Positions 17,025 to 52,478 of a stretch of DNA of 64,000 bases are shown here, piece after piece (the first letter of the stretch is position 1; each line of letters opens with the position of its first letter). This stretch comes from an uncultured Rhodospirillales bacterium (GTDB taxonomy: Bacteria > Pseudomonadota > Alphaproteobacteria > Rhodospirillales > JAPHRK01): assembly GCA_965368335.1 (NCBI GenBank), contig CBDUMN010000003.1:1586-65585 (forward strand), written 5' to 3'. The notes under the pieces are model-generated. The model ran no database searches. It worked only from the letters and a program-made list of their open reading frames with translations, and had not been told where the DNA came from. The position numbers and the translations under genes are program-made.

Positions 17025-17059
17025 AAAAGGGCGAAACAAATGAGGAGAAGCCTCGCATT

Positions 17060-18616: not shown

Positions 18617-18626
18617 GAGGGGCTGA

Positions 18627-20233: not shown

Positions 20234-20234
20234 C

Positions 20235-20852: not shown

Positions 20853-21858
20853 GTATTCCCATCATACGGTTCGCGAGATCGGCGAAACATTAAGCGGCGA
20901 AGTCCTGCTCGATGTGGTTCACACGCGTCCCGGCGGCAACAACCGGATTTTTCAGCTCATCGGTGACAATCAGTCGTTTGCCTTAAAATTCTATCCAGCC
21001 CAGGACGAAGACCCTCGCGACCGACTGGGCAACGAATATGTCTTCCTCGATTTCCTTAAAAACTGCGGCATCCAACATGTGCCGGAGCCAATCATCCGCG
21101 ACGACACCAATTCCTGCGCCCTGTATAGCTGGGTTGAAGGCGAGGCTGTCGGCGAAGCGACGGATAAAGACGTTGAAGCGCTGGCTTGGTTTCTCATCGG
21201 TCTACAGCCTTTGAAACGTAAGCCGGAGGCCACACGGATTAACCCAGCATCCGCCGCCTGCCCGGCTCCCGATGACGCCTTCAAGCAACTGCACCAACGG
21301 CTTGAGTGCTTGAAAGAGGCTGGAAGCGAGCACCCTAGTCTCCATGAATTCCTCGAAAATGATTTCAAGCCCAAGGCTGAAGAGGTGACCGAACAAGCCC
21401 GGACGGCACTACAAGCCAGTGGAATCAACCCGGAGCGGTCGATGGCAGCAGAAAAACTCGCCATCAGCCCGTCCGATTTCGGCTTTCATAACGCTCTTCG
21501 CAATGAAAACGGCGGTTTGAGTTTTGTCGACTTCGAGTATGCCGGGTGGGATGATCCGGTAAAAGCCGTTGCGGACGCCATGCTGCATCCCGGCAGTGGA
21601 ATGAGCGAGGCACAGGCCGAACATTTCCGGGCTAAGATGTTTCCGGTTTTTGCAATCGATCCCAAGTTTGAAGAACGATTTAACGCACTCTACCCGGTCT
21701 ATGCCCTGATCTGGTGCCTCATCATTCTCAATGAATTTTTACCCGAACGCTGGACCCGTCGCCGCCTCGCCGGACAAGAGGCCGATCTGGCAACGATCCA
21801 GGACAGACAACTTGAGAAGGCCGCAACTTTGCTGACAAGGATTGCCCATGCCGCTTAA
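20839..21858 (+). CDS. APH/choline-kinase-family phosphotransferase
   Basis: Brenner/APH motif region SPSDFGFHNALRNENGGLSFVDFEYAGWDDPVKAVAD. It overlaps the HAD gene by 14 nt. Confidence 0.65.
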   Translation: MAPREYSHHTVREIGETLSGEVLLDVVHTRPGGNNRIFQLIGDNQSFALKFYPAQDEDPRDRLGNEYVFLDFLKNCGIQHVPEPIIRDDTNSCALYSWVEGEAVGEATDKDVEALAWFLIGLQPLKRKPEATRINPASAACPAPDDAFKQLHQRLECLKEAGSEHPSLHEFLENDFKPKAEEVTEQARTALQASGINPERSMAAEKLAISPSDFGFHNALRNENGGLSFVDFEYAGWDDPVKAVADAMLHPGSGMSEAQAEHFRAKMFPVFAIDPKFEERFNALYPVYALIWCLIILNEFLPERWTRRRLAGQEADLATIQDRQLEKAATLLTRIAHAA

Positions 21859-22693
21859 CCCGCCTTCGGGGGCCGAGCCCTTAGCCATGCCGCTCGACGA
21901 ACGATCCAAACATCTTCGCCGCTTAGCGCTTGGCTCCATGCTCTCGGCTGGACGCGGCCACTTGGGTCCAGCCATGAGTCTGATCGAAATTCTGCGCGTC
22001 CTCTATGACGACATCCTCCGCTATAAACCAGACAATCCTAAATGGGCCGGGCGAGACCGCTGCATTCTTTCCAAAGGCCATGGCTGCTTGGCGCTCTATG
22101 CCATTCTGGCCGACAAAGGTTTCTTCCCGGAAAGCGAATTGGCCAAGTTTTGCGCTTTCGATGGGTTGCTGGGCGGCCATCCGGAAGTGCTCGCCCCCGG
22201 TGTCGAGGCCAGCACAGGCGCACTAGGACACGGACTTTCCATCGGCGTCGGCATGGCGTTGGCCAATCGGATGAAAAAGCGTGACGGCAAGGTGGTCGTC
22301 GTGATGGGCGATGGCGAAATCAACGAAGGGTCCTGCTGGGAAGCAGCCATGGCGGCAGCCAAGCACGGGCTCGGCAATCTGACCGCCATCATCGACCATA
22401 ACAAAATCCAGTCCTACGGTCCGGTCAATGGGGTCCAGCCTCTCGAACCCCTGGCCGATAAATGGAGGGCCTTCGGCTTCGCCGTCGAGGAAGTGAATGG
22501 TCACGATGTGGCGGCCCTGCAAGAAACTTTAAAACGGCTACCCTTCACTTCGGACCGTCCCAGTGCGCTGATTTGTCATACGGTCAAAGGCAAGGGCATT
22601 CCACCCGCCGAAAACAATCCCACCTGGCACCACAAAAACAAGCTAAAGGATGAGGAACTCGCCCCCATCCGCGAAGCGCTTGGAGAGGGCTGA
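21842..22693 (+). CDS. transketolase, N-terminal (ThDP-binding) subunit
   Basis: GHLGPAMSLIEILRVLY, KGHGCLALYAILA and MGDGEINEGSCWEAAMAAAKHGLGNL motifs of split transketolases. A possible later start lies at 21887. Confidence 0.9.
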   Translation: MPMPLNPPSGAEPLAMPLDERSKHLRRLALGSMLSAGRGHLGPAMSLIEILRVLYDDILRYKPDNPKWAGRDRCILSKGHGCLALYAILADKGFFPESELAKFCAFDGLLGGHPEVLAPGVEASTGALGHGLSIGVGMALANRMKKRDGKVVVVMGDGEINEGSCWEAAMAAAKHGLGNLTAIIDHNKIQSYGPVNGVQPLEPLADKWRAFGFAVEEVNGHDVAALQETLKRLPFTSDRPSALICHTVKGKGIPPAENNPTWHHKNKLKDEELAPIREALGEG

Positions 22694-22697
22694 GACA

Positions 22698-23624
22698 ATG
22701 CGGAAAACAGCGCTCAACATGGTTCACGAACTGGCCCGCCAGGACGAGCGGGTGGTCTATATCGGCTCGGACCCCGGCCCCGGAACGCTTGACGAAATGC
22801 GCGAGGAATTCCCCGACCGTTTCTTCATCGAAGGAATTGCCGAAGCCAACGTGATCGGCATGGCTGCCGGGCTGGCCATGGAAGGTTATGTTCCCTACGT
22901 CAATACCATCGCCACCTTCCTGACCCGGCGTTGTTACGAACAACTGGCTATCGACCTTTGCCTGCATAAGCTGCCCGTCCGGCTGATCGGCAACGGCGGT
23001 GGGCTGGTCTATGCTCCCTTGGGCCCGACCCATCAGGCCATTGAAGACATAGCGATCACCCGCGCTCTGCCGAACATGACAGTCATCGCCCCGGCCGATG
23101 CCGACGAAATGCGCCGCATGGTTCCCCAGACTCTCGATGTGGAAGGGCCGGTTTATATCCGCCTCGCCAAAGGACATGACGAGATCGTCACCCAGGAAGA
23201 CCATGGCAACACCCTGGGCAAGGCGATTATGCACAGAGAACCGGGCGACGCGCTGCTCGTTACCACGGGTATTATGCTCCAGCGGGGCTTGAAAGCGGCC
23301 GAACTGCTGGCCGAAGATAGTATCGAGTGTGGCCTGCTCCATTGCCACACCATCAAACCCTTGGATGTCGAAACCCTGGCCCATGCCGCCCGTCGCGCCA
23401 AGGTCGTCATCACGGCCGAGGAACATCTAGTCTCCGGCGGCCTGGGCGGCGCGGTTCTTGAGGCTCTTTCCGACGCCATGCCGGGCGCCATGCCACCGAT
23501 TATCCGCAAGGGCATTCCCGATAAATTCACCCATCACTATGGCTCCCAGGATCTCCTGCTGGAACACTACGGCCTGCAAGCCCCCGGATTGGCCCAAACC
23601 GTCAAAGACGCGCTGTCGAAATAG
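22698..23624 (+). CDS. transketolase, C-terminal (pyrimidine-binding) subunit
   Basis: FIEGIAEANVIGMAAGLAMEGYVPYVNTIATFL and GPTHQAIEDIAITRALPNMTVIAPAD. ATG 22698 lies 2 nt after the upstream stop. Confidence 0.9.
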   Translation: MRKTALNMVHELARQDERVVYIGSDPGPGTLDEMREEFPDRFFIEGIAEANVIGMAAGLAMEGYVPYVNTIATFLTRRCYEQLAIDLCLHKLPVRLIGNGGGLVYAPLGPTHQAIEDIAITRALPNMTVIAPADADEMRRMVPQTLDVEGPVYIRLAKGHDEIVTQEDHGNTLGKAIMHREPGDALLVTTGIMLQRGLKAAELLAEDSIECGLLHCHTIKPLDVETLAHAARRAKVVITAEEHLVSGGLGGAVLEALSDAMPGAMPPIIRKGIPDKFTHHYGSQDLLLEHYGLQAPGLAQTVKDALSK

Positions 23625-23635
23625 GAACCTGCCCA

Positions 23636-24745
23636 ATGGTCGATAACGTTCGATATTCATACCTGCCCCAACAGTTCGCCGAAATCGACGACCTGTGGGA
23701 AGAGTTGAAAGCCTTCGTCCCCACCGGAGATTTCACCTTGGGCAAGCCGCTCACCGAATTCGAACAGCGTTTCGCCAAGCTGATCGGCTCTAAACATGCC
23801 ATTGGGGTCAATTCAGGCACCGACGCCATCAAGTTGGGGCTGAAAGCGCTCGGCGTCGGCTTCGGCGACGAAGTGATCACCACCGCAAATACCTTCATCG
23901 CCACCGTCGGCGCTATCGCCGAAATCGGCGCAACGCCGGTATTCGTCGATTGCGACGACACCTTTTGCATGAATGTCGGTCAGGTGGAAAGCACCGTCAC
24001 CGAGAAAACCAAGGCCATCGTGCCGGTCCATTTCACCGGCTATATGACCGACATGCGCAAACTCATGCCCATTGCCGAAAAGCACGGCCTTCCCATCGTC
24101 GAAGACGCCTGTCAGGGCATCCTCGCCGCCATCGAGGGGAAAAACGCCGGCACCTGGGGCCATACCGGAGCCTTTTCCCTCCATCCGTTGAAGAACCTCA
24201 ACGTCTGGTCTGACGGCGGCATTATCATCACCGACGACGACGAGCTGGACCGCAAACTACGGCTATTGCGCAATCACGGCATGAGAAACCGGGATGAAAT
24301 CGAACTCCTGGGCTATAACTCCAGGCTCGATACCATCCAGGCGGTGGTCGGCAACTGGCTGATCCCCCAAACCGAAGACATCGCCGCCAAGCGTATCGCC
24401 AATGCGGCCTATTATGACGATGCCTTCGGCGCGCTTTCGCAAATCCGTATCCCGCCGCGTCCCACCGATATGCGGCTGGTCTATCACCTCTATATCGTTT
24501 TCGCCGAAGACCGGGACGGCCTGTTGGAGCATTGCCTCAAAAAAGATATCGAAGCCAAAATCCACTATCCCATTCCACTCTATCAGCAGGATGGTCTGAA
24601 GCATCTGGGCTACACCCCGGGAGACTTCCCGGTCACTGATCGCCACACTCAGGAAATCATCACCTTCCCGGTCGATCAGCATATTTCGAAAGAAGAGATG
24701 GACTACGTGATCGCCACGGTTAAAGAGTACTATGGAGGCTCGTGA
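23636..24745 (+). CDS. DegT/DnrJ/EryC1/StrS-family sugar aminotransferase
   Basis: The family pattern GVNSGTDAIKLGLKALGVGFGDEVITTANTFIATVGAI, the SLHPLKNL lysine region, and LRNHG are present. Confidence 0.9.
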   Translation: MVDNVRYSYLPQQFAEIDDLWEELKAFVPTGDFTLGKPLTEFEQRFAKLIGSKHAIGVNSGTDAIKLGLKALGVGFGDEVITTANTFIATVGAIAEIGATPVFVDCDDTFCMNVGQVESTVTEKTKAIVPVHFTGYMTDMRKLMPIAEKHGLPIVEDACQGILAAIEGKNAGTWGHTGAFSLHPLKNLNVWSDGGIIITDDDELDRKLRLLRNHGMRNRDEIELLGYNSRLDTIQAVVGNWLIPQTEDIAAKRIANAAYYDDAFGALSQIRIPPRPTDMRLVYHLYIVFAEDRDGLLEHCLKKDIEAKIHYPIPLYQQDGLKHLGYTPGDFPVTDRHTQEIITFPVDQHISKEEMDYVIATVKEYYGGS

Positions 24746-25853
24746 GGTGAGCAGCTTGAAAATCCCCTACGTCAATTTCAAGGCTCAGTATGAAGCCGAG
24801 AAAGACGATCTCGCCCGGATAACCGACGAGGTTTTCGCTTCCGGCTGGCTGATCGGCGGCGAGCAGGTAGAAAGGCTGGAGGCTGAGCTTGCCACCTATT
24901 GCGGGGTCGAGCATACCGTGGCGCTCAACTCCGGCACCGACGCATTGATCCTCGGCATGAAGGCCCTGGAAATTGGTCCCGGCGACGAGGTCATTACGCC
25001 GCCCAACTCTTTCGTCGCCTCGACCGCCGCCATCATCGCCGTCGGCGCAACGCCGGTTTTTGCCGATGTAGGCGACGGCATCAACATCGACCCAACCAAA
25101 ATTGAAGACGCCATGACGGCCAAAACCAAGGCGATCATGCCGGTCCACCTTTCGGGCCGCATCGCGGACATGGACGCCATCAACGCCATCGCTAAGCAGC
25201 ATGGCCTTTACATCATCGAAGACGCCGCCCAGTCGGTGGGATCAACCTACAAAGGCAAAAAAAGCGGCAGTCTCGGGACCCTCGGATGTTTTTCCGCCCA
25301 TCCCTTAAAAAACCTCAATGCGGCAGGCGACGCCGGTTTCCTGACCACCAACAACGCAGGCATCGCGGAACGTATCAAGCTCCTGCGCAACCATGGCCTT
25401 AAAGACCGCAATACGGTGGTCGAATGGGGCACGGTTTCGCGGCTCGACAGCCTCCAGGCGGCCATCCTGCGCTATCGGCTTGGCAACATTGAGGCCACAA
25501 TTCGAGCCCGCCGAAACAATGCCCAACGCTACCGTGAGAAATTAGGCGGCAAGGGTTTTGAGTTGCCGCTCGGCAAGGAGCATGAGTTCAATACCTTCCA
25601 TACCTTTATCATCCATGCCGAACGGCGCGATGAACTGCAGGCCTACCTGCTGGAGCAAGGCATTGAAACGGCGATCCACTACCCGATCCCCATTCACCTG
25701 CAACCGGCGGCCCGAAGCCTCCGCTATAAAGAGGGCGATTTCCCAGTCTGTGAAGCCCAGGCGAAACGTATCCTCTCCTTGCCCATCCACCAGTATCTCA
25801 GCTACCAAGAAATCGATTTGGTGGCTGAATTAGTAAACCGTTTTTACAAATAG
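24732..25853 (+). CDS. DegT/DnrJ/EryC1/StrS-family sugar aminotransferase (second copy)
   Basis: LNSGTDALILGMKALEIGPGDEVITPPNSFVASTAAI, SAHPLKNL and LRNHG. It overlaps the previous gene by 14 nt. Confidence 0.9.
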   Translation: MEAREVSSLKIPYVNFKAQYEAEKDDLARITDEVFASGWLIGGEQVERLEAELATYCGVEHTVALNSGTDALILGMKALEIGPGDEVITPPNSFVASTAAIIAVGATPVFADVGDGINIDPTKIEDAMTAKTKAIMPVHLSGRIADMDAINAIAKQHGLYIIEDAAQSVGSTYKGKKSGSLGTLGCFSAHPLKNLNAAGDAGFLTTNNAGIAERIKLLRNHGLKDRNTVVEWGTVSRLDSLQAAILRYRLGNIEATIRARRNNAQRYREKLGGKGFELPLGKEHEFNTFHTFIIHAERRDELQAYLLEQGIETAIHYPIPIHLQPAARSLRYKEGDFPVCEAQAKRILSLPIHQYLSYQEIDLVAELVNRFYK

Positions 25854-25861
25854 GCGAAACC

Positions 25862-26704
25862 ATGGCGAAAAGAGTTCTTTTGTTTGGCTACACCGGCAAA
25901 TTGGGCCGAGCGCTGCATAAAGCCCTGGCAGACGACTTCGAGGTTACCGGCAAAAACACTTCAGATTTCGACGCCATGGATTTTGCCAGCGCGGATAAGC
26001 TGATCGACGAGATTCAGCCGGAAATTATCATCAATCCAGTCGCTTATCTGGGTATCGACGCCTGTGAGCAAAACCCATACCCTGCCTCTGTCATCAATAC
26101 GCTGTTTCCGCAACATTTGGCGCGGCGTTGCTTGGAAACGGAAGCATCTCTCGTACAATTCTCCACCGAGTCGGTTTTTTCGGGAAAGTTGAAACGGCCA
26201 ATTAGCGAAGAGGATACGCCCGACCCTGCCAATAACTATGGTTTCACCAAGTACATGTCGGAAGTGACCGTCCGGGACACCCTGGAAACCCATTATATTT
26301 TCCGCCTGCCCGTTCTGTTTGGCGAAAACCCACGTCGCAATCAGTTTGTCGAAAAGATGCTCGACATGGGCAAAGAGCGTGGAAGCTTGCGCATTGCCGA
26401 CGATATTATTACCGCACCCACCTATGCCAAGGATGTTGCCGAACGCATCGCGATCATGCTCAAGGGAAAGCCCCCCTTCGGACTCTACCACCTCGCCAAC
26501 GCAGGTCAGGCCACACTTTACGAGATGATAAACGAAACCGTCGCCAATCTGGGCCTCGACATTGAGATCAAGCGGGCGTCGCTCAATGACTTCCCGAGCA
26601 TTGGCAACAAAAACACCATTACGCCCTTAAAAACCATCAAGACCACCCCTCTGCGTCCTTGGCGGGAAGCCTTGGCTGAGTATTGTGCAGAACACGAAAA
26701 ATGA
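25862..26704 (+). CDS. RmlD-like (dTDP-4-dehydrorhamnose reductase family) sugar-nucleotide reductase
   Basis: 280 aa with FGYTGKLG nucleotide-binding start and YGFTK YxxxK, giving an RmlD substrate-binding-domain-like layout. Confidence 0.7.
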   Translation: MAKRVLLFGYTGKLGRALHKALADDFEVTGKNTSDFDAMDFASADKLIDEIQPEIIINPVAYLGIDACEQNPYPASVINTLFPQHLARRCLETEASLVQFSTESVFSGKLKRPISEEDTPDPANNYGFTKYMSEVTVRDTLETHYIFRLPVLFGENPRRNQFVEKMLDMGKERGSLRIADDIITAPTYAKDVAERIAIMLKGKPPFGLYHLANAGQATLYEMINETVANLGLDIEIKRASLNDFPSIGNKNTITPLKTIKTTPLRPWREALAEYCAEHEK

Positions 26705-26862
26705 ATATGAGAATCATTCACAAAACAATCGCTTTTTAAGCTTTTCTTGAGGGTTTTTGTGCCCATATAGAAGGCTGCGGTTTTTATCGGCACAAGCACA
26801 GCGCCGACAAGGAATAGGGCCTGGACAGAATATCCCGGCCATACGTGACCAGGAGTAACAGA

Positions 26863-28230
26863 ATGTCTCACATCACGACGGAACAGGTCCGCGACGCTCT
26901 CAAATCAATCACCGATCCGGATAGCGGGGCCGATATCGTCAGCCGCGGTATGATTTCGGAAATCGCCATTCACGGTCGCAAAGTCAGCTTTGCAATTATG
27001 GTCAATGGTGAGGGCGGCGAACGGATGGAACCAATCCGCAAGGCTGCCGAAGACATTGTTTCAAAAATTTCAGGTGTCGCTCAGGCCCATGTGGCCCTGA
27101 CCGCCGAACGCGCACCAACCATGCCCAACGCGGACGCGCGTAAACTCGACAAATACAAAATGGACGGCAACAAGATGCTCTGGCATATGGAGCGCGTCCA
27201 AGCCTGGAAAAACGGTGAGCGCATTGCTCCGCTACACATCGACGTCGGACTTTCAAAGGGTTGCAACATCCGCTGCCAATACTGTTATGGCGTGACCCAG
27301 GGCAATTTTTTCCGCAAAGGCTCAGAGCGCGTTTTCCCACGCGACGCACTGCTCCAGTACATGCAGGATTGCGGCGACCTCGGCGTGCGCTCTATCGCAT
27401 TGATCGGCGAAGCGGAACCCACGCTAAACCCGGCCGTTTACGAGGCCATCGCCACCGGCAAGAAAGCTGGGGTCGACATGTCGATGGGCACCAACGGCGT
27501 TTTGTTCGACACAACCAAGGTCGGTGAAGAAGCCCTGGAACATCTTACTTGGCTGCGCTTTAATATTTCCGCCGGGTCCGACTACGCCTACCGGCGCGTC
27601 CATGCTTCCAAAGAATTCAATACGGTGGTCGAAAAAATCCGCTTCACCGTCGAGACCAAGCGGAAACTCAACCTCGACACCACCGTCGGCCTACAGATGG
27701 TCCTCACCCCTCAAAATGTCGATCAGGCCGTTCCACTCGCCCAACTCGGCGCCGAGTTGGAAGTGGACTATCTGGTCATCAAGCAGTGCTCGGACACTCA
27801 GGAAGGTGACATCGGGGTCTATGACCAACTCGAGGTTTATCACGACTTCAGCGAAACCCTGCACCAAGCCGAAACCTTTTCCAATGACCACTACAACGTG
27901 ATCGTCAAATGGGACAAGATCACCAACGAAGGGCATCGAGAATACGACAACTGTCTCGGCACGCCTTTCCTGCTCTATTCCTCCGGCGACGGCAAGCTCT
28001 ACCCCTGCGGTCAGTGGTTTGGTTACCGCGAAGAAGAATTCCGCTTGGCCGACTTAACCCAGACGACCTTTAAGGAAGCCATCGAAAGCGATGCCTACTG
28101 GGACATCATCAAAAAGCAGGCCTGTCATGTGGACGTGCATAAAGAGTGCTACTCCAACTGCCGCACCCACTCGATCAACGATTTCCTGTGGAACTTCAGC
28201 CACCCACCGGCACATGTGAATTTCGTTTAA
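26863..28230 (+). CDS. DUF59/MIP18-like domain fused to a radical SAM enzyme
   Basis: AGGAG lies 7 nt upstream of ATG 26863. The N-terminal ~85 aa resemble the Mrp/ApbC N-terminal DUF59 (VRDALKSITDPDSGADIVSRGMISEIAIHGRKVSFAI). The radical SAM CxxxCxxC motif is GCNIRCQYCYG (Cys codons at 27262, 27274 and 27283). Confidence 0.75.
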   Translation: MSHITTEQVRDALKSITDPDSGADIVSRGMISEIAIHGRKVSFAIMVNGEGGERMEPIRKAAEDIVSKISGVAQAHVALTAERAPTMPNADARKLDKYKMDGNKMLWHMERVQAWKNGERIAPLHIDVGLSKGCNIRCQYCYGVTQGNFFRKGSERVFPRDALLQYMQDCGDLGVRSIALIGEAEPTLNPAVYEAIATGKKAGVDMSMGTNGVLFDTTKVGEEALEHLTWLRFNISAGSDYAYRRVHASKEFNTVVEKIRFTVETKRKLNLDTTVGLQMVLTPQNVDQAVPLAQLGAELEVDYLVIKQCSDTQEGDIGVYDQLEVYHDFSETLHQAETFSNDHYNVIVKWDKITNEGHREYDNCLGTPFLLYSSGDGKLYPCGQWFGYREEEFRLADLTQTTFKEAIESDAYWDIIKKQACHVDVHKECYSNCRTHSINDFLWNFSHPPAHVNFV

Positions 28231-28258
28231 GACGGCAATTTGCAGATCCATTAGAGAA

Positions 28259-30040
28259 ATGGAAATTCAACAAAAACTCCAGAACGGCCTGATGCTCCAC
28301 CGTAGCGGCGACAAGAAAGCTGCTGAAACGGCGTACCTCGATGTGATTTCTCAAGACCCTCTTCAGGTCGATGCGCTCCATCTACTTGCAGTATTGCGTC
28401 TTGAAGAAGGGCGGCAAGAAGATGCCCTAGAAAATATCGACAAGGCCCTACAAGTGGACCCGGAGTATCCTGCCGCACGGCTCAATCGGGCGAACATTCT
28501 CATGGCGCTTCATCGTCCTCACGAGGCCATAAGAGAGCTGCAGGAACTGAGCATCGCCAAACCGGATTTATTGGAAGTTTATATTAATCTGGGGAATGCC
28601 TTACTTTCCGTCAAAAAGTTTAACGCCGCCCTTATTGAGTTTGACAAGGCGCTCAAGGTTAACCCCAATCATCCAAATGCACGTATGGGATATGGGCTCG
28701 CCCAAGAAGGGCTGGAACACTATGCCGAAGCCGCCGAGGCGTTTAGGGGTGTCCTCAAACAAATACCCAATGAACCAACCGTGTTGGCGCGATTGGCAAG
28801 CGTCAACGGAGAAATGAGCAACCTAAACGAGGCCTTGCAGTATGCTCTTTCAGCCCTGGCCTTTAACACTAAATCGGCAGAAAATTATTATAACGTCGTT
28901 ATCTATGCTGGTGCGTTGGCCGAAAAAGGCGACCCAGCCGGACATCAAGCCCTTCAAAGCCTAGAGAACATCACCAAACCCGAAAGCCCCTTAACCAAGG
29001 CGGCTGAAAAACTCATGGTTTTCTATCAAGGACGGAAATCCCCTCAGGTAAAAATAATCAAGGCGTTAGGCGAAACATTTTCTGAGGAACAGCCAACCAC
29101 GCTTACGATTGAACAAGCCGAAGTGGTGAATGATCAATGGTACGTTATTAAGGATGATGTTCTTTACATAGACCCCCACGCTCATATCCGAGAAACGGAG
29201 CAGCAACCAACCGTGACCCTGCATCCTGGGGGAAAAGCGGTTTTATCCGAAGCCCCCCCTAAGCGCAGAAGCATTGATGAGCCGGTATTCCTCATGGGGG
29301 GATGTGGGAATTACTATCACTGGATTATCGATCATCTGCCAAATCTTATGGCGCTCGAGCAAGCGAATTTATCCAAACAACCACTTATTCTTCTTCATCA
29401 CGACCCATCACCAAATCAGCTGGAAGCTCTTACTTTGTTGGGTATCGACAAAGAAAGACTATGCTTCTTCTCCGACGCGGAAATTTTAGAATGCAGCCAA
29501 CTGTTGCTGCCTTATCTACCCGACAGGCGTCCCAACAAATGGGATGAAAAAAACTGGTGGTGGCAAACGACCGCAACACCCAAGGTTAGCGCATGGCTCA
29601 AAGAACGTTTTGCGCCAACACCAAAGACGGATGCCGCTGAAAAAATTTTTATAAGCCGGAGTACGGCAAAAACACGCCGTGTCGTTAACGAAGCGGAAAT
29701 AGCCAACTTAGCAAAAGCCGCGGGCTACAGGATTGTTGAGCCCGGCATGATGAGCTTTAAAGAACAAGTCTCCATTTTTTCCGCCGCTAAGAAAATTGTA
29801 GCCCCGCATGGTGCAGGATTAACAAACATGGTCTTTGCCCCCGATGGCGTTGAAGTAGTTGAGTTCGTCGGTGAGATTGCTCCTCCTGAATTCTTTGAGG
29901 CGTTGGCAAAAACAAAGAATGCCGCTTATCAGAGAGTAACCTGCAGGCTCAGCGATGGCTTTTCGTCATATCGAAAGCGAGACAACCGGTTCAATGACTT
30001 CATCATTGATCCTGAGGAAGCAAGAAGCGTTTTCACGTAG
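28259..30040 (+). CDS. TPR-repeat protein fused to a GT61/DUF563-type glycosyltransferase
   Basis: The N-terminal ~230 aa are TPR-like (AETAYLDVISQDPLQVDALHLLAVL...). The C-terminal half has GT61/DUF563 hallmarks GNYYHWIIDHLPNL and FISRSTAKTRRVVNEAEI...QVSIFSAAKKIVAPHGAGLTNMVF. Confidence 0.7.
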   Translation: MEIQQKLQNGLMLHRSGDKKAAETAYLDVISQDPLQVDALHLLAVLRLEEGRQEDALENIDKALQVDPEYPAARLNRANILMALHRPHEAIRELQELSIAKPDLLEVYINLGNALLSVKKFNAALIEFDKALKVNPNHPNARMGYGLAQEGLEHYAEAAEAFRGVLKQIPNEPTVLARLASVNGEMSNLNEALQYALSALAFNTKSAENYYNVVIYAGALAEKGDPAGHQALQSLENITKPESPLTKAAEKLMVFYQGRKSPQVKIIKALGETFSEEQPTTLTIEQAEVVNDQWYVIKDDVLYIDPHAHIRETEQQPTVTLHPGGKAVLSEAPPKRRSIDEPVFLMGGCGNYYHWIIDHLPNLMALEQANLSKQPLILLHHDPSPNQLEALTLLGIDKERLCFFSDAEILECSQLLLPYLPDRRPNKWDEKNWWWQTTATPKVSAWLKERFAPTPKTDAAEKIFISRSTAKTRRVVNEAEIANLAKAAGYRIVEPGMMSFKEQVSIFSAAKKIVAPHGAGLTNMVFAPDGVEVVEFVGEIAPPEFFEALAKTKNAAYQRVTCRLSDGFSSYRKRDNRFNDFIIDPEEARSVFT

Positions 30041-30087
30041 TCATGCTGGTTGCCCGGCAAGACACTTTATTAAGTAAGGAGAGCTCT

Positions 30088-31467
30088 ATGCCTCATTTGC
30101 TATCGGCCCCAACAACGGTGAATTTAGAACTCACGGAAATCTGCAATGTCAAATGCGATCATTGCTACAACTATTGGCGCGACGAAAGCATGGGCGAAAT
30201 CTCGCTTGATGGCGAAAGACTAGAGCGTGTCATTGACAACTTGGCGAAGGCTGGGGTTTTCCATGTCATCCTGAGCGGCGGGGAGCCAATGGCGAAATTC
30301 CCCTTGTTGCTGCAAGCCGTTGAGCGGTTGAATAGCCACGGGATGTCATTAAGCGTCAATAGCAATGTCATGCTGCTCACGCCGGAAAGAGCTTCCCAGC
30401 TTGTTGAAAGGGGCGTTGACCATATCCTGACCAGTTTGCCGTCACTCGATCCGGCGACCAATGATCGAATTATGAATAAAGTTGGAGCTTTCGAGAAAAT
30501 CGTAACAGGCATTACAAATGCGGTAGACGCAGGCATCCGCATCAGCGTCAACATGGTCATTACGAAGAAGAACTATCAAGACGTCTACAAAACCGCGAAA
30601 TTCGTAGCCAATCTAGGCGCACAACGTATTTTCATCACCCGTTCAGTGCCCCCGATATATACGGAAACAGTGTCCGACGACGAATACGACATGACGCCAG
30701 AGGAAGTTCGCTCGGCGCTCGACAGCGCCATCCAGGCGCGTGACGAGTTCGGCATCATGATCGGAACCCTGGTCAGCTACCCGCTTTGTTTCCTGAGCGA
30801 TTTAGAAAAATACAAAGACTTTGTCGGACGCGGTTGCCCGGCACAGCGCGGCGATCGGATGAGCATTAACGCCAATGGTGCGGTTCACGCCTGCGTCCAT
30901 GAAGAAGATGGTTACGGCAATATTCTGGAAAATGATATACGCGACATTTACCAAAACAGCATGCGCAAATGGCACGGAGGAAACCTCCACTACGATGGCT
31001 GCGAAGGGTGCGAATATATCGATGTTTGCGAATCTGGTTGTCGCATGAATGCACTGGGCCGCGAAGGCGCAATGAATCTTAAAGACCCACTGTATCAAGG
31101 ACCTACTCACTTCAAGCGCCATTTCAAGTTCGACCAAAACGACGACTCCATTACGCTGATCGAAGAGAATCAGGCATTCACGGTCCCTTCCCGGCTCAGA
31201 TTCCGGAAAGAAAACGATTTTTACTTGGTGAATATTCGATGGGGCAATTCGATCACCCTTGATAATGAAACGACCGAATTCCTGATAGCCCATCAGGAAA
31301 GCGGTGAAGCATTTACGCTAAATGACCTCGGAGAAACCAAAGCTAAGATTTTGCGCAATCTGTATTTCAAGGATGTCATTGAAACCAAGGACAGCCAGCC
31401 AACAGATAGCAACAAGGCGTTTCTCGGCCTCAGCCTTAATCCAGATGCACTAAAAACAGGGACCTAG
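30088..31467 (+). CDS. radical SAM / SPASM-domain enzyme
   Basis: AAGGAGAG RBS before ATG 30088. The CxxxCxxC motif is ICNVKCDHCYN. The C-terminal Cys-rich SPASM-like region is GCPAQRGDRMSINANGAVHACVHE...CEGCEYIDVCESGCRMN. Confidence 0.8.
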   Translation: MPHLLSAPTTVNLELTEICNVKCDHCYNYWRDESMGEISLDGERLERVIDNLAKAGVFHVILSGGEPMAKFPLLLQAVERLNSHGMSLSVNSNVMLLTPERASQLVERGVDHILTSLPSLDPATNDRIMNKVGAFEKIVTGITNAVDAGIRISVNMVITKKNYQDVYKTAKFVANLGAQRIFITRSVPPIYTETVSDDEYDMTPEEVRSALDSAIQARDEFGIMIGTLVSYPLCFLSDLEKYKDFVGRGCPAQRGDRMSINANGAVHACVHEEDGYGNILENDIRDIYQNSMRKWHGGNLHYDGCEGCEYIDVCESGCRMNALGREGAMNLKDPLYQGPTHFKRHFKFDQNDDSITLIEENQAFTVPSRLRFRKENDFYLVNIRWGNSITLDNETTEFLIAHQESGEAFTLNDLGETKAKILRNLYFKDVIETKDSQPTDSNKAFLGLSLNPDALKTGT

Positions 31468-31480
31468 CCCTATTAAAAAG

Positions 31481-31498
31481 CTAGGGTCAGAACCCTAG
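31481..31498. terminator. short hairpin between convergent operons
   Basis: CTAGGGT-CAGA-ACCCTAG lies between the radical SAM stop (31467) and the galE-like stop, which it overlaps. No obvious U-tract. Confidence 0.35.
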
Positions 31499-32472
31499 GA
31501 ACGGTTACCTTTTTCCAACCAGTCTGAGGCTGTTCGGATAATCGCTTCAAGGTCTGAGTTCGGGTGTCTAAAATTCAGCACGCGTTTGACCTTGTCTGGC
31601 TCGGCAATGAGACAAGCGGGGTCGCCAGGGCGGCGGGGCTTCACAACCGTTCTGACATTTTTACCCGTCACCTTTTCGACCGCGGCAATGACTTCCTTCA
31701 CGGAATGGCCAATGCCGGTGCCTAGATTGTAAGGAGAAAATTCCGGTGTATCTCGAAAACTTTCTAAAGCCGTGACATGGACGGTCGCCAGATCGCTTAC
31801 ATGCACATAATCGCGCACACAACTACCATCAGGCGTCGGATAATCATCACCATAAATTTCCACAACCGTGCCATTGATGGCCGCTTCGAGGATACGGGGG
31901 ATCAGGTGCGGCTCGGGATCATGAGCCTCCCCGACGTCTAAATCCGGGTCGGCCCCAGCAGCATTGAAATAGCGAAGCACAGCGGCTGAAATTCCCTCCG
32001 CCTTGACCATATCCTCAATGATCCGCTCACATGTCACCTTACTCATGCCATAAGGTGAAATTGGGTTGAGCGGCAGGCCCTCATCAATTGAGGTTGCGTT
32101 TTGGTCGCCAAAAATAGTGCAACTACTGGAAAAAACGATCTTCCGAACCCCAGTTTGCTGCATGGCTCGGGCCAATGAGATCATCCCCCCCACATTATTG
32201 TTATAGTAGAGCAAAGGCTGCTCGTTGGACTCTCCTACATAGGCAAATGAGGCGAAATGCATGACGCCTTCGACGCCATATTCGGTCATCACAGCCGCCA
32301 AACGCCCCTCATCGAGGATATCGCCTTCCTCTAACGGCCCCCAACGAACCGCCCAAGCATTTCCTCGGCACAGATTGTCATAGGTCACGGGCACATAACC
32401 GGCCGATGCAAGCGCTTTACAAGCATGGCTACCTATGTAGCCCGCGCCCCCGGTTACCAGGACCGACTTCAT
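31495..32472 (-). CDS. galE: UDP-glucose/UDP-hexose 4-epimerase (GalE family)
   Basis: VLVTGGAGYIGSHACKAL start, YGMSK YxxxK, and GalE-like motifs throughout (DYPTPDGSCVRDYVHVSDLA). Confidence 0.9.
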   Translation of the reverse strand: MKSVLVTGGAGYIGSHACKALASAGYVPVTYDNLCRGNAWAVRWGPLEEGDILDEGRLAAVMTEYGVEGVMHFASFAYVGESNEQPLLYYNNNVGGMISLARAMQQTGVRKIVFSSSCTIFGDQNATSIDEGLPLNPISPYGMSKVTCERIIEDMVKAEGISAAVLRYFNAAGADPDLDVGEAHDPEPHLIPRILEAAINGTVVEIYGDDYPTPDGSCVRDYVHVSDLATVHVTALESFRDTPEFSPYNLGTGIGHSVKEVIAAVEKVTGKNVRTVVKPRRPGDPACLIAEPDKVKRVLNFRHPNSDLEAIIRTASDWLEKGNRS

Positions 32473-33710: not shown

Positions 33711-34367
33711 CTATGGTTTGACTAAGTAGGAAATGGCATTGGAATAGGGGAGCTTCTCGACAATGATTTTCGTTTTTTCGAGAAATTCCTCAATCGCCTT
33801 GTTTGCTCCAGGAAAAGCGCCATAGTCATCCAAAATAACGATGCCCCCCCGAACCACATGATCAAATAAATTTTCCAGGCAAGCCTTGGTCGGCTCATAC
33901 AGATCCACATCAATATGCAGGAGAGAAATGCGAAGGGCTGGATTCTCCTCTAAAAAAGCCGGAAGCGTTTCGCGCAAATCTCCCGCAATAAGGTCAATGT
34001 TCGTATTGAGCCCCACCTTATCCAAACAGTTGCGCATATCTTCAATTGAGATACTCAGATCCCCCGCCTCAGAAACAAACCGTTGGCGCACCTCAACATC
34101 GGCCTCAAATTCAGCATCGGGAAATTTCCCAAAAGTATCAAACCCAATGATACGGCGACTTTTCGGATTCTCAAAAAGAGCTCGGAATTTAACCAGGCGA
34201 GAAAACGACGCCCCTTTAAAAACGCCACACTCAACGACTTCGCCCGGCAAATGACTGATCCGACGGTAAAGGTCCATATGGGTAGCAAACTTGCTAAAGC
34301 GTTCGACCGGGGCGGTTAAATAATATCCATTCTCGTAATCAAACTGTTTTTCAAAATCATAATCCAT
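33711..34367 (-). CDS. TylF/MycF-family (macrocin-type) sugar O-methyltransferase
   Basis: GEVVECGVFKGASFSRL SAM-binding motif and GGIVILDDYGAFPGANKAIEEF. The 218-aa size is typical. Confidence 0.75.
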   Translation of the reverse strand: MDYDFEKQFDYENGYYLTAPVERFSKFATHMDLYRRISHLPGEVVECGVFKGASFSRLVKFRALFENPKSRRIIGFDTFGKFPDAEFEADVEVRQRFVSEAGDLSISIEDMRNCLDKVGLNTNIDLIAGDLRETLPAFLEENPALRISLLHIDVDLYEPTKACLENLFDHVVRGGIVILDDYGAFPGANKAIEEFLEKTKIIVEKLPYSNAISYLVKP

Positions 34368-34421
34368 TTTCTGCCACCCGTTGCTTTATCACTTAAAAAC
34401 CAATCTTAACCCCATTCCATT

Positions 34422-35639
34422 TCATGAAGATTTACTTTGATATTTCTCCATGACTGATCGATAGAGCGATGGCGTCAAACTAAGGGGGCGTTTCCCATCT
34501 AACTCCGCCTGAGCAATGTAAACAGCTAGTGAGGCTTCATGGCGCGCATAATACTCTTCATTGTCAGCCTGAACCAACCCGCCATGAGATCTTCCAATTG
34601 TGTCGTGCTCGGCCGCTCTATGCGAAGCCCACATGGCGCTTGCCCCCTTTTCACGGCCATCTAAACCGGCTAGCAGCAACATCCGCCCCAGACTACAGGC
34701 GACAGGGAATGCCACCGATGTTGTGACATTCCAAGCATCGACACAAACAAACTCTCGGGTGAGGTCTAGGTTAACGCGGGCGGGAGGGAACCCCTCAAAC
34801 CGAGTCGGCACCCCAACCATTTTTTGATGTAAATTTTTTGGCGTATCTTGAAGGAAGTACCGCAGGTACTGAATTTGCGTCACAAAAAGGCGATTTTCAC
34901 GACTTAAGAAATCAGCCAAAACTCTTCGATAATTGCCGCCGTATCGGGAAACTCCGCAGAAGTAAGGATCACCGATCACCGCAACAACCGGCCCCACATG
35001 GTTCAAAATATGCTCTTGTCCAATCAGCGTATTGGGCACCACCAAGGTGGTGTTGTGAAATTTACTTAAATCGATTGTTTCGCAGCTATGCCCTGGAGCG
35101 AGAAGTAAGCTGGCCTCAATCCCCTGTTCTTGAAGCTTTTTAATGAAATGGGAAAAATAAACACGCGACACCCCCTCTTCACGCTTTGCCGGAAAGACCT
35201 TGGCAAAAGTTTCGGGCAATTCCGCAGCCTCAAATACATTGGCTTCGGTATCAATAATGACTTTATGGACTTCCTTGCGCTTCACTGCGAGTTCCAACGC
35301 AGGATAACGTTTTAGGACCAATTCGGCGGCACTGTGATCAACACAAATGATCACTGCCGCTTCCTCTAACCGACCATCTTGATCGGCGACAAAATCAAAG
35401 ATTTCCCAATTGGCGTTCAGGGTATCTATGCAACAGGGATGGAAAGGTTCGGGACAATTCGCCAGAACCTTTTCTTTCAATCTCGGGGCCTCCAAGAGAC
35501 TTTGCGTTACCGGCACGGAAACTTTAAGCCCGGCGCCTGAAAACGGCGCGCAATACCAGGCCAAGCGGTGAAGCACTTCGGCCAATTTCTCTAAACTATC
35601 TAGCGCGGGAAGCACGGAAAGACGGATGGCTTTGCTCAT
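34422..35639 (-). CDS. hypothetical protein (405 aa) inside the nonulosonate operon
   Basis: Long ORF in an operon with short intergenic gaps. No recognisable catalytic motif by eye. The stretch LLLAPGHSCETIDLSKFHNTTLVVPN vaguely recalls the GxGPS region of MptE/Maf-like proteins. Confidence 0.5.
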   Translation of the reverse strand: MSKAIRLSVLPALDSLEKLAEVLHRLAWYCAPFSGAGLKVSVPVTQSLLEAPRLKEKVLANCPEPFHPCCIDTLNANWEIFDFVADQDGRLEEAAVIICVDHSAAELVLKRYPALELAVKRKEVHKVIIDTEANVFEAAELPETFAKVFPAKREEGVSRVYFSHFIKKLQEQGIEASLLLAPGHSCETIDLSKFHNTTLVVPNTLIGQEHILNHVGPVVAVIGDPYFCGVSRYGGNYRRVLADFLSRENRLFVTQIQYLRYFLQDTPKNLHQKMVGVPTRFEGFPPARVNLDLTREFVCVDAWNVTTSVAFPVACSLGRMLLLAGLDGREKGASAMWASHRAAEHDTIGRSHGGLVQADNEEYYARHEASLAVYIAQAELDGKRPLSLTPSLYRSVMEKYQSKSS

Positions 35640-35661
35640 TGGACCGCTCTACACCATCATC

Positions 35662-37905
35662 TTAGAACCACTTTTCGAGCCGATTAAGCGCTATGGCGAA
35701 CCCTTCGCCACCGTTTTTATGTCCCTGCCAAATTTCGGGAATAAACGAAGCCGAGGAACAACACTTCTTCACCTGCTTTGCCAAGTGCTCAAAATCAATA
35801 TCTCCATCCCCGATCTGTAGTCCTTCATCATCGACCCCGCGAGCATCGACAAGATGCAAATGTTTTGAGTAAGGCCCTACGGTTTCAATAAATGAAGCAA
35901 ACGACCAGCCAAACTTTGTACAGGCCAATTTAGAATGAGAGGTATCCAAACAAATATTCGTTTCATATGTTTTGCAGAACCACTCGATTTCATCTGGGTC
36001 CATGAATAAGTTGTGGTAACGCTGCCCCCCCATTAACCAAGGAAACGGTGGCATGGTCTGAGGTAAAAGCTCGACCCCTTCGCTATCAACTCGCAAAAAC
36101 CCTTCTGCGACGCGCTCGTACATCTTGCGCCTGTCTGATTCAGGGATAAAACTCTTCTCTGAAAAGCCCCCAACATTGACAATAATGAACGGACGGTCGG
36201 CACGTTTAAAATAGGGCTTCAACGTCCGGGCCACATCGACAACATTTTGCAATTCACGAATGCCTCGCTCCCAAATTGCATTGTCGTCAGAGGCTAGATC
36301 GAGCAAATAATCACGAGCGAAAACCTCCGGGGAATGAACTACTAAATCCATATCCAGAGGCCCGTCCATATAACTTTCGACGGATATATCCATATCCTTG
36401 AAGCTCAGATGGAACTCCAACAAATCTGGTGCGATTTTCTCGAGAAACTGTTTGTAGTCATGGCATCGGACAGGCACGCCCCATGGATGCCTGAACTTAT
36501 AATCATGAAAAACGTTTTGTTCGCCAATGACATCTGCTTCAAAAAAGAAATCTCCAGCCTTGATATCCCGCGTCGCCAAGCTGCCGACCAACTCACTTCG
36601 CCGGTTGGGCTGGATACCGCGCCCCGGGTTCTTGATATCAATAATATCATCGGTGATGACATCACCCTTCGAAACATCACGAGTAGCAACGAGGCTTTTG
36701 GCGAGGATTTCGCGGTTCATCATTTCGCCCTGGCTTAAAACGCGGACAGGCTCACCAATGGAATCTTCAGTCTGCCGAATGGCCTCAACCATCTCCCGAA
36801 ACTCATCAGGCAATAAACTAATTCGATGGTCGTTGCCTTCTAGGGACCGGTCGACCGTAAAATGCTTCTCAACAATTTTTGCCCCTAGCGCAACCGCCGA
36901 AACAGCCACATGAATACCGCGTTCGTGTCCTGAATATCCCACCGGGCATTCACCGATTTCTTTCAAACGTTTTAGGTATGAAAGGTTGATGTCCTTGAAT
37001 GGTGGCGGGTATGCGGAATTGCAATGAAGCAAGGCAAACTGAGCCCCCTGCCTTTGCAGAAGTTTCACGGCATCCTTGATTTCCTGCTCATTCGACATGC
37101 CGGTCGAGACGATCATTGGTTTTTTAGTAGCGGCGACCGCCGCCAAGAGCTCATGGTTTGTCAGATCTGCGGATGCAATTTTATATGCTTGAACCCCCAT
37201 GCCCTCTAAAGCTTGCAAACTTTCCAAATCCCAGGGCGTACAAAGCGGGATAGCCCCACAACGACGGACATAATTCAGCGCCTCAGCCATTTCCTCGTTG
37301 GAAAGCTGGAACCGTGACAACAGGTCAAGCACATATTGCGACCCCAAATCTTCACTTGGGTCATTCGCAGCATCGGCATTGCGATAGAGGCTATCCATAT
37401 GGCGGAGCTGAAATTTAACGCAATCAGCTCCCGCATCGACGGCAAGGTCGATCAGTTCCTTCGCACGTTTCAAGCTGCCATTATGGTTGTTGCCGATTTC
37501 AGCAATAATAAATGCCTTGGAATCATCGGAAATCTCACGCCCTTCAATATTCATGAAGGATGCTTCATCAAAAGCAATCGCGACGAAATGCCCCATTTCA
37601 TTGACCAGGGGGACAAAGTGGATTTTGCTATCTAGTAGATTTCTAATGACCTCGGGGTCCTCATCAACCCCAGCCACAGTGATTTCCTTGGTCATTAAAT
37701 CTGCGACAGAGCGGTTGATATCAACCTGGTCTTCATTCACCACCCAACGCCTAAAATCGCCGTCGGTAAAAACCCCTTCGATGGTCCCTCTCTCCGTTAC
37801 GGCGCAAACAAAACCCTTCTTGTTCTGGCTCATCTTGATGAGAGCTTCCAAAACCGTTGCATGAGCAAGCAACACGAAAGATTCGACATTTGATTGGATA
37901 ATCAT
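35662..37905 (-). CDS. four-module fusion: CBS pair, NeuB-type nonulosonate synthase, SAF domain and xylose-isomerase-like TIM barrel
   Basis: Residues 1-~115 are CBS-like (GFVCAVTERGTIEGVFTDGDFRRWV). From ~130 comes the NeuB signature AFIIAEIGNNHNGSLKRAKELIDLAVDAGADCVKFQ. The SAF domain is LVATRDVSKGDVITDDIIDIKNPGRGI. The last ~280 aa are sugar-phosphate isomerase/epimerase (AP-endonuclease-2 TIM)-like (HLHLVDARGVDDEGLQIGDGDIDFEHLA). Confidence 0.85.
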   Translation of the reverse strand: MIIQSNVESFVLLAHATVLEALIKMSQNKKGFVCAVTERGTIEGVFTDGDFRRWVVNEDQVDINRSVADLMTKEITVAGVDEDPEVIRNLLDSKIHFVPLVNEMGHFVAIAFDEASFMNIEGREISDDSKAFIIAEIGNNHNGSLKRAKELIDLAVDAGADCVKFQLRHMDSLYRNADAANDPSEDLGSQYVLDLLSRFQLSNEEMAEALNYVRRCGAIPLCTPWDLESLQALEGMGVQAYKIASADLTNHELLAAVAATKKPMIVSTGMSNEQEIKDAVKLLQRQGAQFALLHCNSAYPPPFKDINLSYLKRLKEIGECPVGYSGHERGIHVAVSAVALGAKIVEKHFTVDRSLEGNDHRISLLPDEFREMVEAIRQTEDSIGEPVRVLSQGEMMNREILAKSLVATRDVSKGDVITDDIIDIKNPGRGIQPNRRSELVGSLATRDIKAGDFFFEADVIGEQNVFHDYKFRHPWGVPVRCHDYKQFLEKIAPDLLEFHLSFKDMDISVESYMDGPLDMDLVVHSPEVFARDYLLDLASDDNAIWERGIRELQNVVDVARTLKPYFKRADRPFIIVNVGGFSEKSFIPESDRRKMYERVAEGFLRVDSEGVELLPQTMPPFPWLMGGQRYHNLFMDPDEIEWFCKTYETNICLDTSHSKLACTKFGWSFASFIETVGPYSKHLHLVDARGVDDEGLQIGDGDIDFEHLAKQVKKCCSSASFIPEIWQGHKNGGEGFAIALNRLEKWF

Positions 37906-37946
37906 CTGAAATTTCCATTCTAGAGTTCAGAGAAACCGTTCTGATT

Positions 37947-42956: not shown

Positions 42957-43181
42957 AGGATTCTCCTCATTAGCCAGTTTCAAGGCTATCGACCGACCGT
43001 CAGTCATCCTTCTGGATATGAACCAGCCTTGAATCTTATGTTCCGGTATATGGTAAACCTAAAAATAGATATCAAGGCGGCGACAACGGAGTTGGCCGAT
43101 AGCTAGCGCCTGGCGGCCACCGCCGATCCAGACAAGCACAGAGTAGCTTAGCGACTCATTCTTGAGAGAATCTTAAAAGGC

Positions 43182-52280: not shown

Positions 52281-52478
52281 TTATTGCTGCAGCCATTTTT
52301 CATTGTGTGATGAACAGCACAGCCCCATATTTGGCAAAATCCTATGATAATTAACGCAAAAGCAACCAAGCGCCTGTTAAGAATAAGTGTAATATCTTTA
52401 CCAGTTGCCCTGAAAGAGCTAAAATATCTTTTGGCTCAACGAGTTAATTGAAGGCTGGAAGATAGAGACGGAACCGCC

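Follow-up and report, generated by a model that had tools for sequence, protein, structure and literature searches.

Among the questions raised by this locus, the central one is whether two adjacent genes work together. Within a stretch of 64,000 nucleotides from an uncultured Rhodospirillales bacterium (contig CBDUMN010000003.1), here called the window, a gene for a glycosyltransferase of family GT61 that carries an array of tetratricopeptide repeats (TPR) at its N-terminus is followed by a gene for a radical SAM/SPASM enzyme. A first-pass annotation of the sequence had taken the two as a pair that could modify the flagellin polypeptide or its glycan linkage. From the domain content, the intact motifs, the neighbourhood statistics, the strain variability and a compositional break, all of them directly observed, we arrive with moderate confidence at a different reading, where the two genes are neighbours from different sugar modules that meet in a hypervariable flagellin glycosylation island. 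Their adjacency is probably a module junction in that island and not a functional pair. The genes and the signals around them are as follows.

28259-30040, plus strand: TPR-GT61 glycosyltransferase gene, 593 aa (open reading frame call, Pfam PF04577 and TPR families)
30076-30081, plus strand: AAGGAG ribosome-binding site, 6 nt before the ATG at 30088 (from the sequence)
30088-31467, plus strand: radical SAM/SPASM gene, 459 aa counted from M16 (start from homologues and the database gene call)
31463-31498, no strand given: overlapping hairpins at the 27-nt gap that separates galE from the radical SAM/SPASM gene convergent to it (consensus scan only)

The two open reading frames of the first-pass annotation (28259-30040 and 30043-31467) are indeed present, its TPR, GT61 and radical SAM/SPASM domain calls are correct, and the two genes are, as it said, the last of a plus-strand run (16014-31467) after which the genes are convergent. 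The spacing of 2 nt that it gave had to be corrected. This figure rests on the longest form of the second frame (30043-31467, plus strand, 474 aa), and all homologues start at the position of M16, opening with MKRLFSAPT, as does the 459-aa database gene call. The true start is thus probably the ATG at 30088, preceded by the AAGGAG, which leaves a gap of 47 nt. The hairpins beyond the second gene are likely a bidirectional terminator, judging from the sequence, and the terminator-like sites of the region are as many as expected from shuffled sequence in the same consensus scan.

How strong is the case for a working pair on flagellin, in which the radical SAM enzyme would alter the polypeptide or the linkage made by the GT61 enzyme? 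The genes share a strand, no terminator-like site was seen by the consensus scan in the 47 nt between them, and both have a similarly low GC content at third codon positions (GC3). The identical 593-aa gene call and the same gene arrangement recur in four metagenome contigs, which belong to the same organism and come from different samples, so that the adjacency is stable in this organism. Moreover, SPASM enzymes often act on peptides, and the C-terminal domain of this one has a topology like that of a RiPP recognition element (RRE; RiPP, ribosomally synthesized and post-translationally modified peptide). However, the adjacency is conserved nowhere else, as the company kept by each gene in other genomes makes clear.

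The radical SAM/SPASM protein belongs to a conserved family of about 460 aa with more than 400 clusters, the top 120 of which are 47-62% identical to it. We collected the neighbours within 10 kb of 80 loci of this family, from one genome per GTDB species, and 53 of these loci hold a protein at least 35% identical to that of the window (all but one at least 38%). Neither a GT61 domain, nor a flagellin, nor a radical SAM gene of the type found just upstream in the window (26863-28230) was near the homologue in any of the 80 loci, and a Maf gene was near it in one. The recurrent neighbours in the 53-locus set are instead a CMP-sugar synthetase (CTP_transf_3; 40 loci), NeuB (33 loci), a TylF-type methyltransferase with a median identity of 55% to that of the window (27 loci), a B12-radical SAM (19 loci) and class-I methyltransferases (16 and 15 loci). 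The gene that directly follows is TylF in 14 cases and the CMP-transferase in 10; LegG/NeuC-type 2-epimerases, HisF/HisH-like genes and DegT aminotransferases are also among the neighbours. An internal control was given by the 27 loci farthest from the window protein (30-35% identity, mostly from the candidate phyla radiation and archaea), which had none of these neighbours.

The hosts of the family are Alphaproteobacteria, Pelagibacteraceae (SAR11), Prochlorococcus, Nitrospinota, Planctomycetota, Omnitrophota, Desulfobacterota and Latescibacterota, among others. SAR11 and Prochlorococcus have no flagella, so flagellin cannot be the substrate of the family as a whole, and in both lineages too the family tracks the CMP-nonulosonate synthetase, NeuB and the methyltransferases. 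On the side of the glycosyltransferase, none of the seven inspected contexts of distant TPR-GT61 homologues contains a radical SAM neighbour, and close relatives of this organism carry other genes at the junction. In the Pfam and PDB profile searches and in a weak hhalign comparison, the RRE-like topology found no counterpart in sequence similarity to PqqD or other RREs. Together, these data make the working pair quite improbable, and the main result of this analysis is in this respect corrective: the two genes are not supported as a functional unit acting on flagellin.

Where, then, are the partners of the radical SAM/SPASM gene in the window? Its convergent neighbours offer an answer.

31495-32472, minus strand: GalE equivalog (394 bits, cut-off 262), in convergent orientation to the radical SAM/SPASM gene
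33711-38675, minus strand: convergent nonulosonic-acid module (Pfam and NCBIfam)
33711-34367, minus strand: TylF-type methyltransferase
34422-35639, minus strand: unknown gene of the module
35662-37905, minus strand: CBS-NeuB-SAF-AP_endonuc_2 fusion, 747 aa, with an unusual four-domain make-up
37947-38675, minus strand: CMP-sugar synthetase

The gene order in Magnetospirillum sp. 64-120 runs from radical SAM through TylF and the NeuB-SAF-AP_endonuc_2 fusion to the CMP-transferase, and this foursome is split in the window into two convergent units (30088-31467 and 33711-38675), with the TylF, fusion and CMP-transferase genes at 2.2-7.2 kb downstream of the radical SAM/SPASM gene. The window protein shows all the traits by which we define the family here, in a working and not a curated sense: about 460 aa, at least 38% identity to members (here 47-59% to more than 100 of them), the C-terminal domain, and NeuB, CMP-synthetase or methyltransferase genes within 10 kb. 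The genes at 33711-38675 would accordingly be its functional partners, by the conservation of this company. The four-domain fusion itself occurs in six of the family loci, including those of Magnetospirillum sp. 64-120 and Azospirillum tabaci, and a separate AP_endonuc_2-like gene in seven others. A homologue 51% identical to the window protein (P0232) is recorded in a eukaryotic transcriptome set, that of Anaeramoeba flamelloides; the record could stem from a symbiont, from contamination or from gene transfer.

The chemistry of such an enzyme can be approached through its domains, numbered here along the 459-aa form.

30787-31041, plus strand: SPASM region (Pfam SPASM and seven family-invariant Cys)
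31180-31377, plus strand: family-specific C-terminal domain, aa ~365-430 (AlphaFold2 secondary structure and conserved columns)

Pfam finds the Radical_SAM (PF04055, E 3.5e-25), Fer4_12 and SPASM (PF13186, 23.4 bits against 21.5) families. The CX3CX2C motif (C19, C23 and C26) is invariant in the family, and so are the SPASM cysteines C234, C250, C269, C305, C308, C314 and C318, which include a CX2CX5CX3C motif; the region is predicted to hold auxiliary Fe-S clusters. This core and the SPASM Cys motif are shared with PqqE, SuiB, SkfB, anSME, BlsE, DesII, BtrN and viperin, whereas the window family differs from them in its own conserved C-terminal domain and in its partners, which are NeuB, the CMP-sugar synthetase and methyltransferases instead of peptides, sulfatases or aminoglycoside genes. 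The C-terminal domain is modelled as three strands followed by three helices, in a winged-helix or RRE-like topology (AlphaFold, pLDDT 81.7), and carries the family motif RLRFRKE..FYL.NIRWGN. It has no Pfam match at E<=10 and no PDB profile match, and its hhalign probability with PqqD is 1%, a weak test with an approximate PqqD query.

These features bring in a second explanation, in which the enzyme would be the maturase of a peptide or protein whose gene lies elsewhere or has escaped recognition, the winged-helix domain would recognize this substrate, and the link with nonulosonic acids would be indirect. The full seven-Cys SPASM domain, the three-strand, three-helix fold of the C-terminal domain and the nearest solved relatives (PqqE, SuiB, SkfB, anSME) all agree with it. 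By profile, these relatives are PqqE (5.5e-19), BlsE (5e-15), SkfB, MoaA and SuiB, with anSME only at 3.9e-7; by fold, they are SuiB, SkfB, PqqE, BlsE, TigE, viperin, anSME and DesII, the last a weak match (TM 0.46). The identity to the solved SPASM relatives is only 15-22%, and the sugar- or nucleotide-acting BlsE, viperin, DesII and MoaA are structurally as close as the peptide-acting ones.

Curated families do not help a maturase either. Among the 25 best of the 77 NCBIfam models that matched, none came near its cut-off, the best being GeoRSP and NirJ2 with 118 bits against cut-offs of 400-500. The first-pass annotation had noted that such enzymes mostly mature peptides or proteins or oxidize sugars, and had named the anSME, BtrN and DesII clades for comparison; no model of these three was among the same 25 best matches; nor did sulfatase, aminoglycoside or desosamine partner genes appear among the conserved neighbour clusters or the scanned genes of the window. 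A conserved precursor-peptide gene was absent from the 53 loci and from the window. The sole recurrent small frame upstream encodes an XRE-type HTH regulator of 78-119 aa, and the idea of a RiPP precursor was rejected on this ground. The regulator gene lies directly upstream of the homologue in six loci (L010, L014, L016, L019, L034 and L062), SAR11 included, where it may control the radical SAM/nonulosonic-acid module locally; the window lacks it. Across phyla, the gene stands directly beside same-strand methyltransferase and CMP-sugar synthetase genes. We therefore consider a peptide maturase improbable.

The best-supported role of the radical SAM/SPASM enzyme, inferred from its genomic company, would be the tailoring, with the methyltransferase, of a nonulosonic acid of the legionaminic type or of its CMP-activated form. 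In this scheme, hydrogen abstraction at a sugar carbon by the 459-aa enzyme would lead to a dehydrogenation, an epimerization or a dehydration, and the convergent genes downstream would supply its co-workers, namely the TylF-type methyltransferase, the CMP-sugar synthetase and the fusion of NeuB with a TIM barrel. The radical chemistry could be coupled to the sugar-isomerase-like TIM barrel that is fused to NeuB.

The second half of the question concerns the glycosyltransferase, and here the setting matters. The window as a whole is one very large island of flagellin glycosylation genes, which supports the flagellin context assumed in the first-pass annotation. The flgE, flgI, flgK and FlgL-like genes are at 6.4-13.8 kb, and a short flagellin gene (60394-61311, 305 aa) stands with FlbT- and FlaF-like frames at 59.5-61.3 kb. 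This FlaF/FlbT pair and the best homologues indicate an alphaproteobacterial origin. Between the two flagellar blocks, the island also encodes two Maf proteins, a TPR-GT41, a GT41-like protein and a GT4. Besides several methyltransferases, it has a B12-radical SAM and a glycosyltransferase of the TIGR04372 type. A set of the legionaminic-acid type comprises a LegC-family aminotransferase (431.9 bits, cut-off 420), a LegB-like dehydratase, a NeuD-type acetyltransferase, the NeuB fusion and the CMP-sugar synthetase. The TPR-GT61 protein itself has two main parts.

28259-28804, plus strand: TPR superhelix of high confidence with five TPRs, aa 1-182 (AlphaFold2 model, Foldseek and phmmer)
29096-30040, plus strand: GT61 catalytic domain, aa ~280-593 (homologue alignment, PDB profile matches and Foldseek)

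Several TPR families cover aa ~10-210 (Pfam; TPR_2 at E 4.8e-20), and the model has a pLDDT of 89-98 across aa 1-170, with helices from H2 to H168. Beyond aa 182, weaker helical repeats run to about aa 256 and lead through a low-confidence linker into a confidently modelled catalytic domain. The repeats match the TPR domains of OGT and SPINDLY as well as consensus TPRs (Foldseek and phmmer; OGT TPRs at E 5e-30). Glyco_transf_61 (PF04577) covers aa 352-534 over the full model (1-137), with E 1.6e-26 and 93.6 bits against a cut-off of 27. The GT61 motif (NYYHW, R..R...NE, PHGAG and E) is intact, and H354, R467, R473, N477, E478, H517-G518-A519 and E535 are invariant across 28 sequences, that of the window among them. 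The solved relatives of the domain are POMGNT2 (9.3e-13) and EOGT (7.8e-12) by homologue profile, and POMGNT2 again, at E ~1e-8, by Foldseek. The sequence has no evident signal peptide or transmembrane segment, so that the protein is taken as soluble.

This architecture recalls known enzymes from three directions. Like OGT and SPINDLY, the protein joins an N-terminal TPR superhelix, the part that selects protein substrates in those enzymes, to a GT-B catalytic domain; theirs is a GT41 domain, whereas a true TPR-GT41 is encoded separately in the island (50358-52280, minus strand, E 5e-98). The TPR similarity to the TPR-GT41 and GT41-like proteins of the island is generic (22-30%) and does not point to a recently shared acceptor module. 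EOGT and POMGNT2 have the same catalytic family (PF04577), although they are lumenal or membrane-anchored and without TPRs, and the window enzyme is predicted to be cytoplasmic. EOGT acts directly on Ser/Thr and POMGNT2 on O-mannose; in the window enzyme, acceptor recognition is presumably outsourced to the TPR array.

A third resemblance is to FlmG. The two proteins have 596 (FlmG) and 593 aa, are both soluble, and carry an N-terminal TPR region followed by a C-terminal glycosyltransferase domain, described as GT-B in FlmG, so that the FlmG-type layout of about 600 aa is present here. Both occur in a flagellar setting of the alphaproteobacterial type, with FlaF/FlbT-like genes and a nonulosonic-acid pathway, and flagellin and nonulosonic-acid biosynthesis genes are indeed both in the window. 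FlmG has been reported from Caulobacterales only, and the enzymes of Caulobacter crescentus and Brevundimonas subvibrioides transfer pseudaminic (Pse) or legionaminic (Leg) acid (PMC7591256; bioRxiv 10.1101/2022.03.25.485807). Its TPR domain binds flagellin experimentally (PMC7591256), as do the TPRs of Maf-1 (bioRxiv 10.1101/2023.12.03.569772), and these precedents lend weight, by analogy, to the first-pass view of the TPR array as a protein-recognition module. The catalytic domains of FlmG and of TPR-GT61 were compared by description only, the FlmG papers being without the terms GT61 or DUF563; if the catalytic domain of FlmG were also a GT61, the window gene would be a divergent FlmG relative and not a new combination. 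A difference is that the island also has the TPR-GT41 and two Maf genes that could carry out Pse/Leg transfer, and the GT61 enzyme may for this reason use another donor than that of FlmG.

For the acceptor, the donor and the reaction chemistry we infer the following. The 593-aa protein would be a soluble, modular FlmG-like glycosyltransferase. Its TPR superhelix would select the acceptor, a protein that is most likely the flagellin of 60394-61311, and its GT61 domain would transfer a sugar, supplied in nucleotide-activated form, inside the cytoplasm and ahead of export. A different role would be the addition of a second sugar to a flagellin-linked glycan, which leads to a third explanation: the enzyme would belong to polysaccharide synthesis or glycan extension (of a capsule, of lipopolysaccharide or of the flagellin-linked glycan), in the way that POMGNT2 lengthens O-mannose, and not to direct protein O-glycosylation, with the TPRs as a scaffold for a multi-enzyme complex. 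Most bacterial GT61 homologues lack TPRs, are labelled as capsular polysaccharide biosynthesis proteins or occur in polysaccharide loci. In addition, POMGNT2, a solved relative, works on an O-glycan that is already in place, and two Maf genes plus two GT41-type candidates are already available for the first sugar. Nevertheless, experiments have defined the combination of TPRs and a glycosyltransferase domain as the hallmark of enzymes that glycosylate flagellin directly (PMC7591256). The window protein is moreover soluble, and its gene lies inside the flagellar island, between flgL and flagellin. A glycan-extending transferase is thus unlikely, though it deserves more weight than the peptide maturase.

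The donor sugar of the FlmG-like enzyme may be sought in the genes upstream.

16014-26704, plus strand: upstream sugar-nucleotide operon (Pfam and NCBIfam; conserved around homologues of the upstream radical SAM)
26863-28230, plus strand: gene with DUF59/FeS_assembly_P and radical SAM domains (Pfam and family search)

The operon encodes a dehydratase and epimerases, an HldE-like kinase/nucleotidyltransferase with the nucleotidyltransferase and kinase domains in reversed order with respect to Escherichia coli HldE, a GmhA-like SIS protein, an APH-like kinase, a split transketolase, two DegT aminotransferases and an RmlD-like reductase, a content that suggests a chain-extended or branched amino sugar derived from heptose. 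The upstream radical SAM gene, which the first-pass annotation did not mention, ends 28 nt before the TPR-GT61 gene. It belongs to a family of about 360 aa, in which 215 representatives were found at E<=1e-30 and the DUF59 domain is mostly missing; the family shows an H.NF motif conserved near the C-terminus and four additional invariant Cys. The radical SAM enzymes on either side of the GT61 gene were rejected as paralogues, since they share 23% identity in the core only. A metagenome scan with an 8-sequence alignment gave 80 loci for the upstream radical SAM, where its company is the split transketolase, the RmlD-like reductase, the HldE-like protein, the SIS protein and the dehydratase; by this company, it belongs to the upstream sugar operon and not to the GT61 gene. 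The whole module (16014-28230) recurs in dozens of metagenome contigs (L102-L176 and L179), and we found no name for it.

Relatives of the TPR-GT61 protein were sought with the GT61 domain alone, as the full-length query was dominated by TPR-only matches. Among 5.8 billion clusters, no homologue above about 36% identity was found outside the contigs of the same organism, and the TPR+GT61 architecture appeared in about nine distant proteins, including those of the seven inspected contexts. In two of these contexts, other TPR-glycosyltransferase genes adjoin. In another, contig L179, a 505-aa TPR-GT61 (P0276) is separated by 3.3 kb from a set of dehydratase, HldE-like, SIS, epimerase and split-transketolase genes, with 48-69% identity to the upstream operon of the window and the same gene order. 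Because of this co-occurrence and of the operon position, we favour the product of the heptose/transketolase/aminotransferase operon as the most likely GT61 donor. GT61 enzymes typically use UDP-sugars, and an alternative donor would be a UDP-hexose(NAc) supplied through the adjacent GalE.

What happens at the junction itself is visible in close relatives. Four contigs whose upstream radical SAM is 89-95% identical to that of the window continue after it with different genes. One of them (L097, 9504-14137) has a cassette with an epimerase, a CMP-transferase, a different radical SAM/SPASM of 378 aa and a NeuB, and two others (L098, 6807-12955; L100, 5237-11410) have a 607-aa radical SAM, a methyltransferase, two unknown proteins and an AMP-binding enzyme. 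The site after the upstream radical SAM thus appears to be a hot spot of cassette exchange. The composition changes at the same place: GC3 is 0.60-0.72 in the upstream operon and the core flagellar genes, 0.495 in the GT61 gene, 0.578 in the radical SAM/SPASM gene and 0.47-0.60 in the block at 31.5-59.5 kb, so that the drop falls exactly between the upstream operon and GT61. As the cassettes differ and GC3 drops, the GT61 and radical SAM/SPASM genes open a strain-variable and compositionally distinct block.

Several points weigh against the reading of two neighbours with these particular roles. A GT61 domain was found in none of the 79 loci of the upstream module outside the organism of the window, and the donor assignment consequently rests on two co-occurrences. 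The composition of the GT61 gene is also unlike that of the operon proposed as the source of its donor. Flagellar genes and the heptose/transketolase module were both absent at six of the seven inspected TPR-GT61 loci, stand-alone bacterial GT61 genes do occur in polysaccharide loci such as those of Azospirillum plasmids, and the link between the TPR array and flagellin is drawn by analogy. For the radical SAM/SPASM enzyme the reaction type is a guess, and a peptide or protein substrate is possible given the full SPASM domain, the RRE-like C-terminal topology and solved relatives that mostly modify peptides (PqqE, SuiB and SkfB).

The rest of the island adds some observations of its own. The minus-strand genes at 50358-59490, beside flagellin, FlaF and FlbT, comprise four further candidate protein glycosyltransferases, namely the TPR-GT41, a tandem pair of Maf genes and a GT41-like protein that has helical repeats at its N-terminus, and with GT61 counted there are at least five candidate glycosyltransferases for a single flagellin of 305 aa. 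A FlgL/flagellin-like protein (12214-13752, plus strand) with a long central insertion rich in Thr, Ser, Gly and Asp could be an additional glycosylation target. A PAS-histidine kinase with a C-terminal hemerythrin domain (13730-15826, minus strand) lies between the hook-associated genes and the sugar operon. The third radical SAM of the island, of the B12-binding, methyltransferase-like type, is at 41439-43007 (minus strand), and a 505-aa protein at 47249-48766 (minus strand) has a glycosyltransferase domain of the TIGR04372 family (189 bits against 45).

To our knowledge, Maf and FlmG are the only established classes of flagellin glycosyltransferases. A literature search pairing flagellin with GT61 returned plant papers only, and none of the papers found in the searchable library ties a radical SAM enzyme to nonulosonic-acid biosynthesis or to flagellin glycosylation islands. 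A joint hypothesis, doubtful although conceivable, is that the locus holds both a third class of flagellin glycosyltransferase, a TPR-GT61 that uses an amino sugar derived from heptose and transketolase steps, and an uncharacterized radical SAM family that modifies CMP-activated sugars of the legionaminic or neuraminic type. If so, the sugar added by TPR-GT61 would not be a nonulosonate, and the enzyme would join Maf (GT-A) and FlmG as a third catalytic class. The presence of such a protein in a flagellin island would show the TPR acceptor module joined to another catalytic scaffold, and glyco-engineering with other donor sugars could make use of it. Under the same hypothesis, a radical oxidation, epimerization or deoxygenation coupled to methylation would be a chemistry undescribed for nonulosonic acids. 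The more promising lead of the locus is the cross-phylum link of the radical SAM/SPASM family with nonulosonic acids: its association with nonulosonate genes, together with the lack of any paper found, makes it a lead to an undescribed sugar modification, in a family that crosses phyla and reaches the surface-glycan islands of the most abundant bacteria of the ocean.

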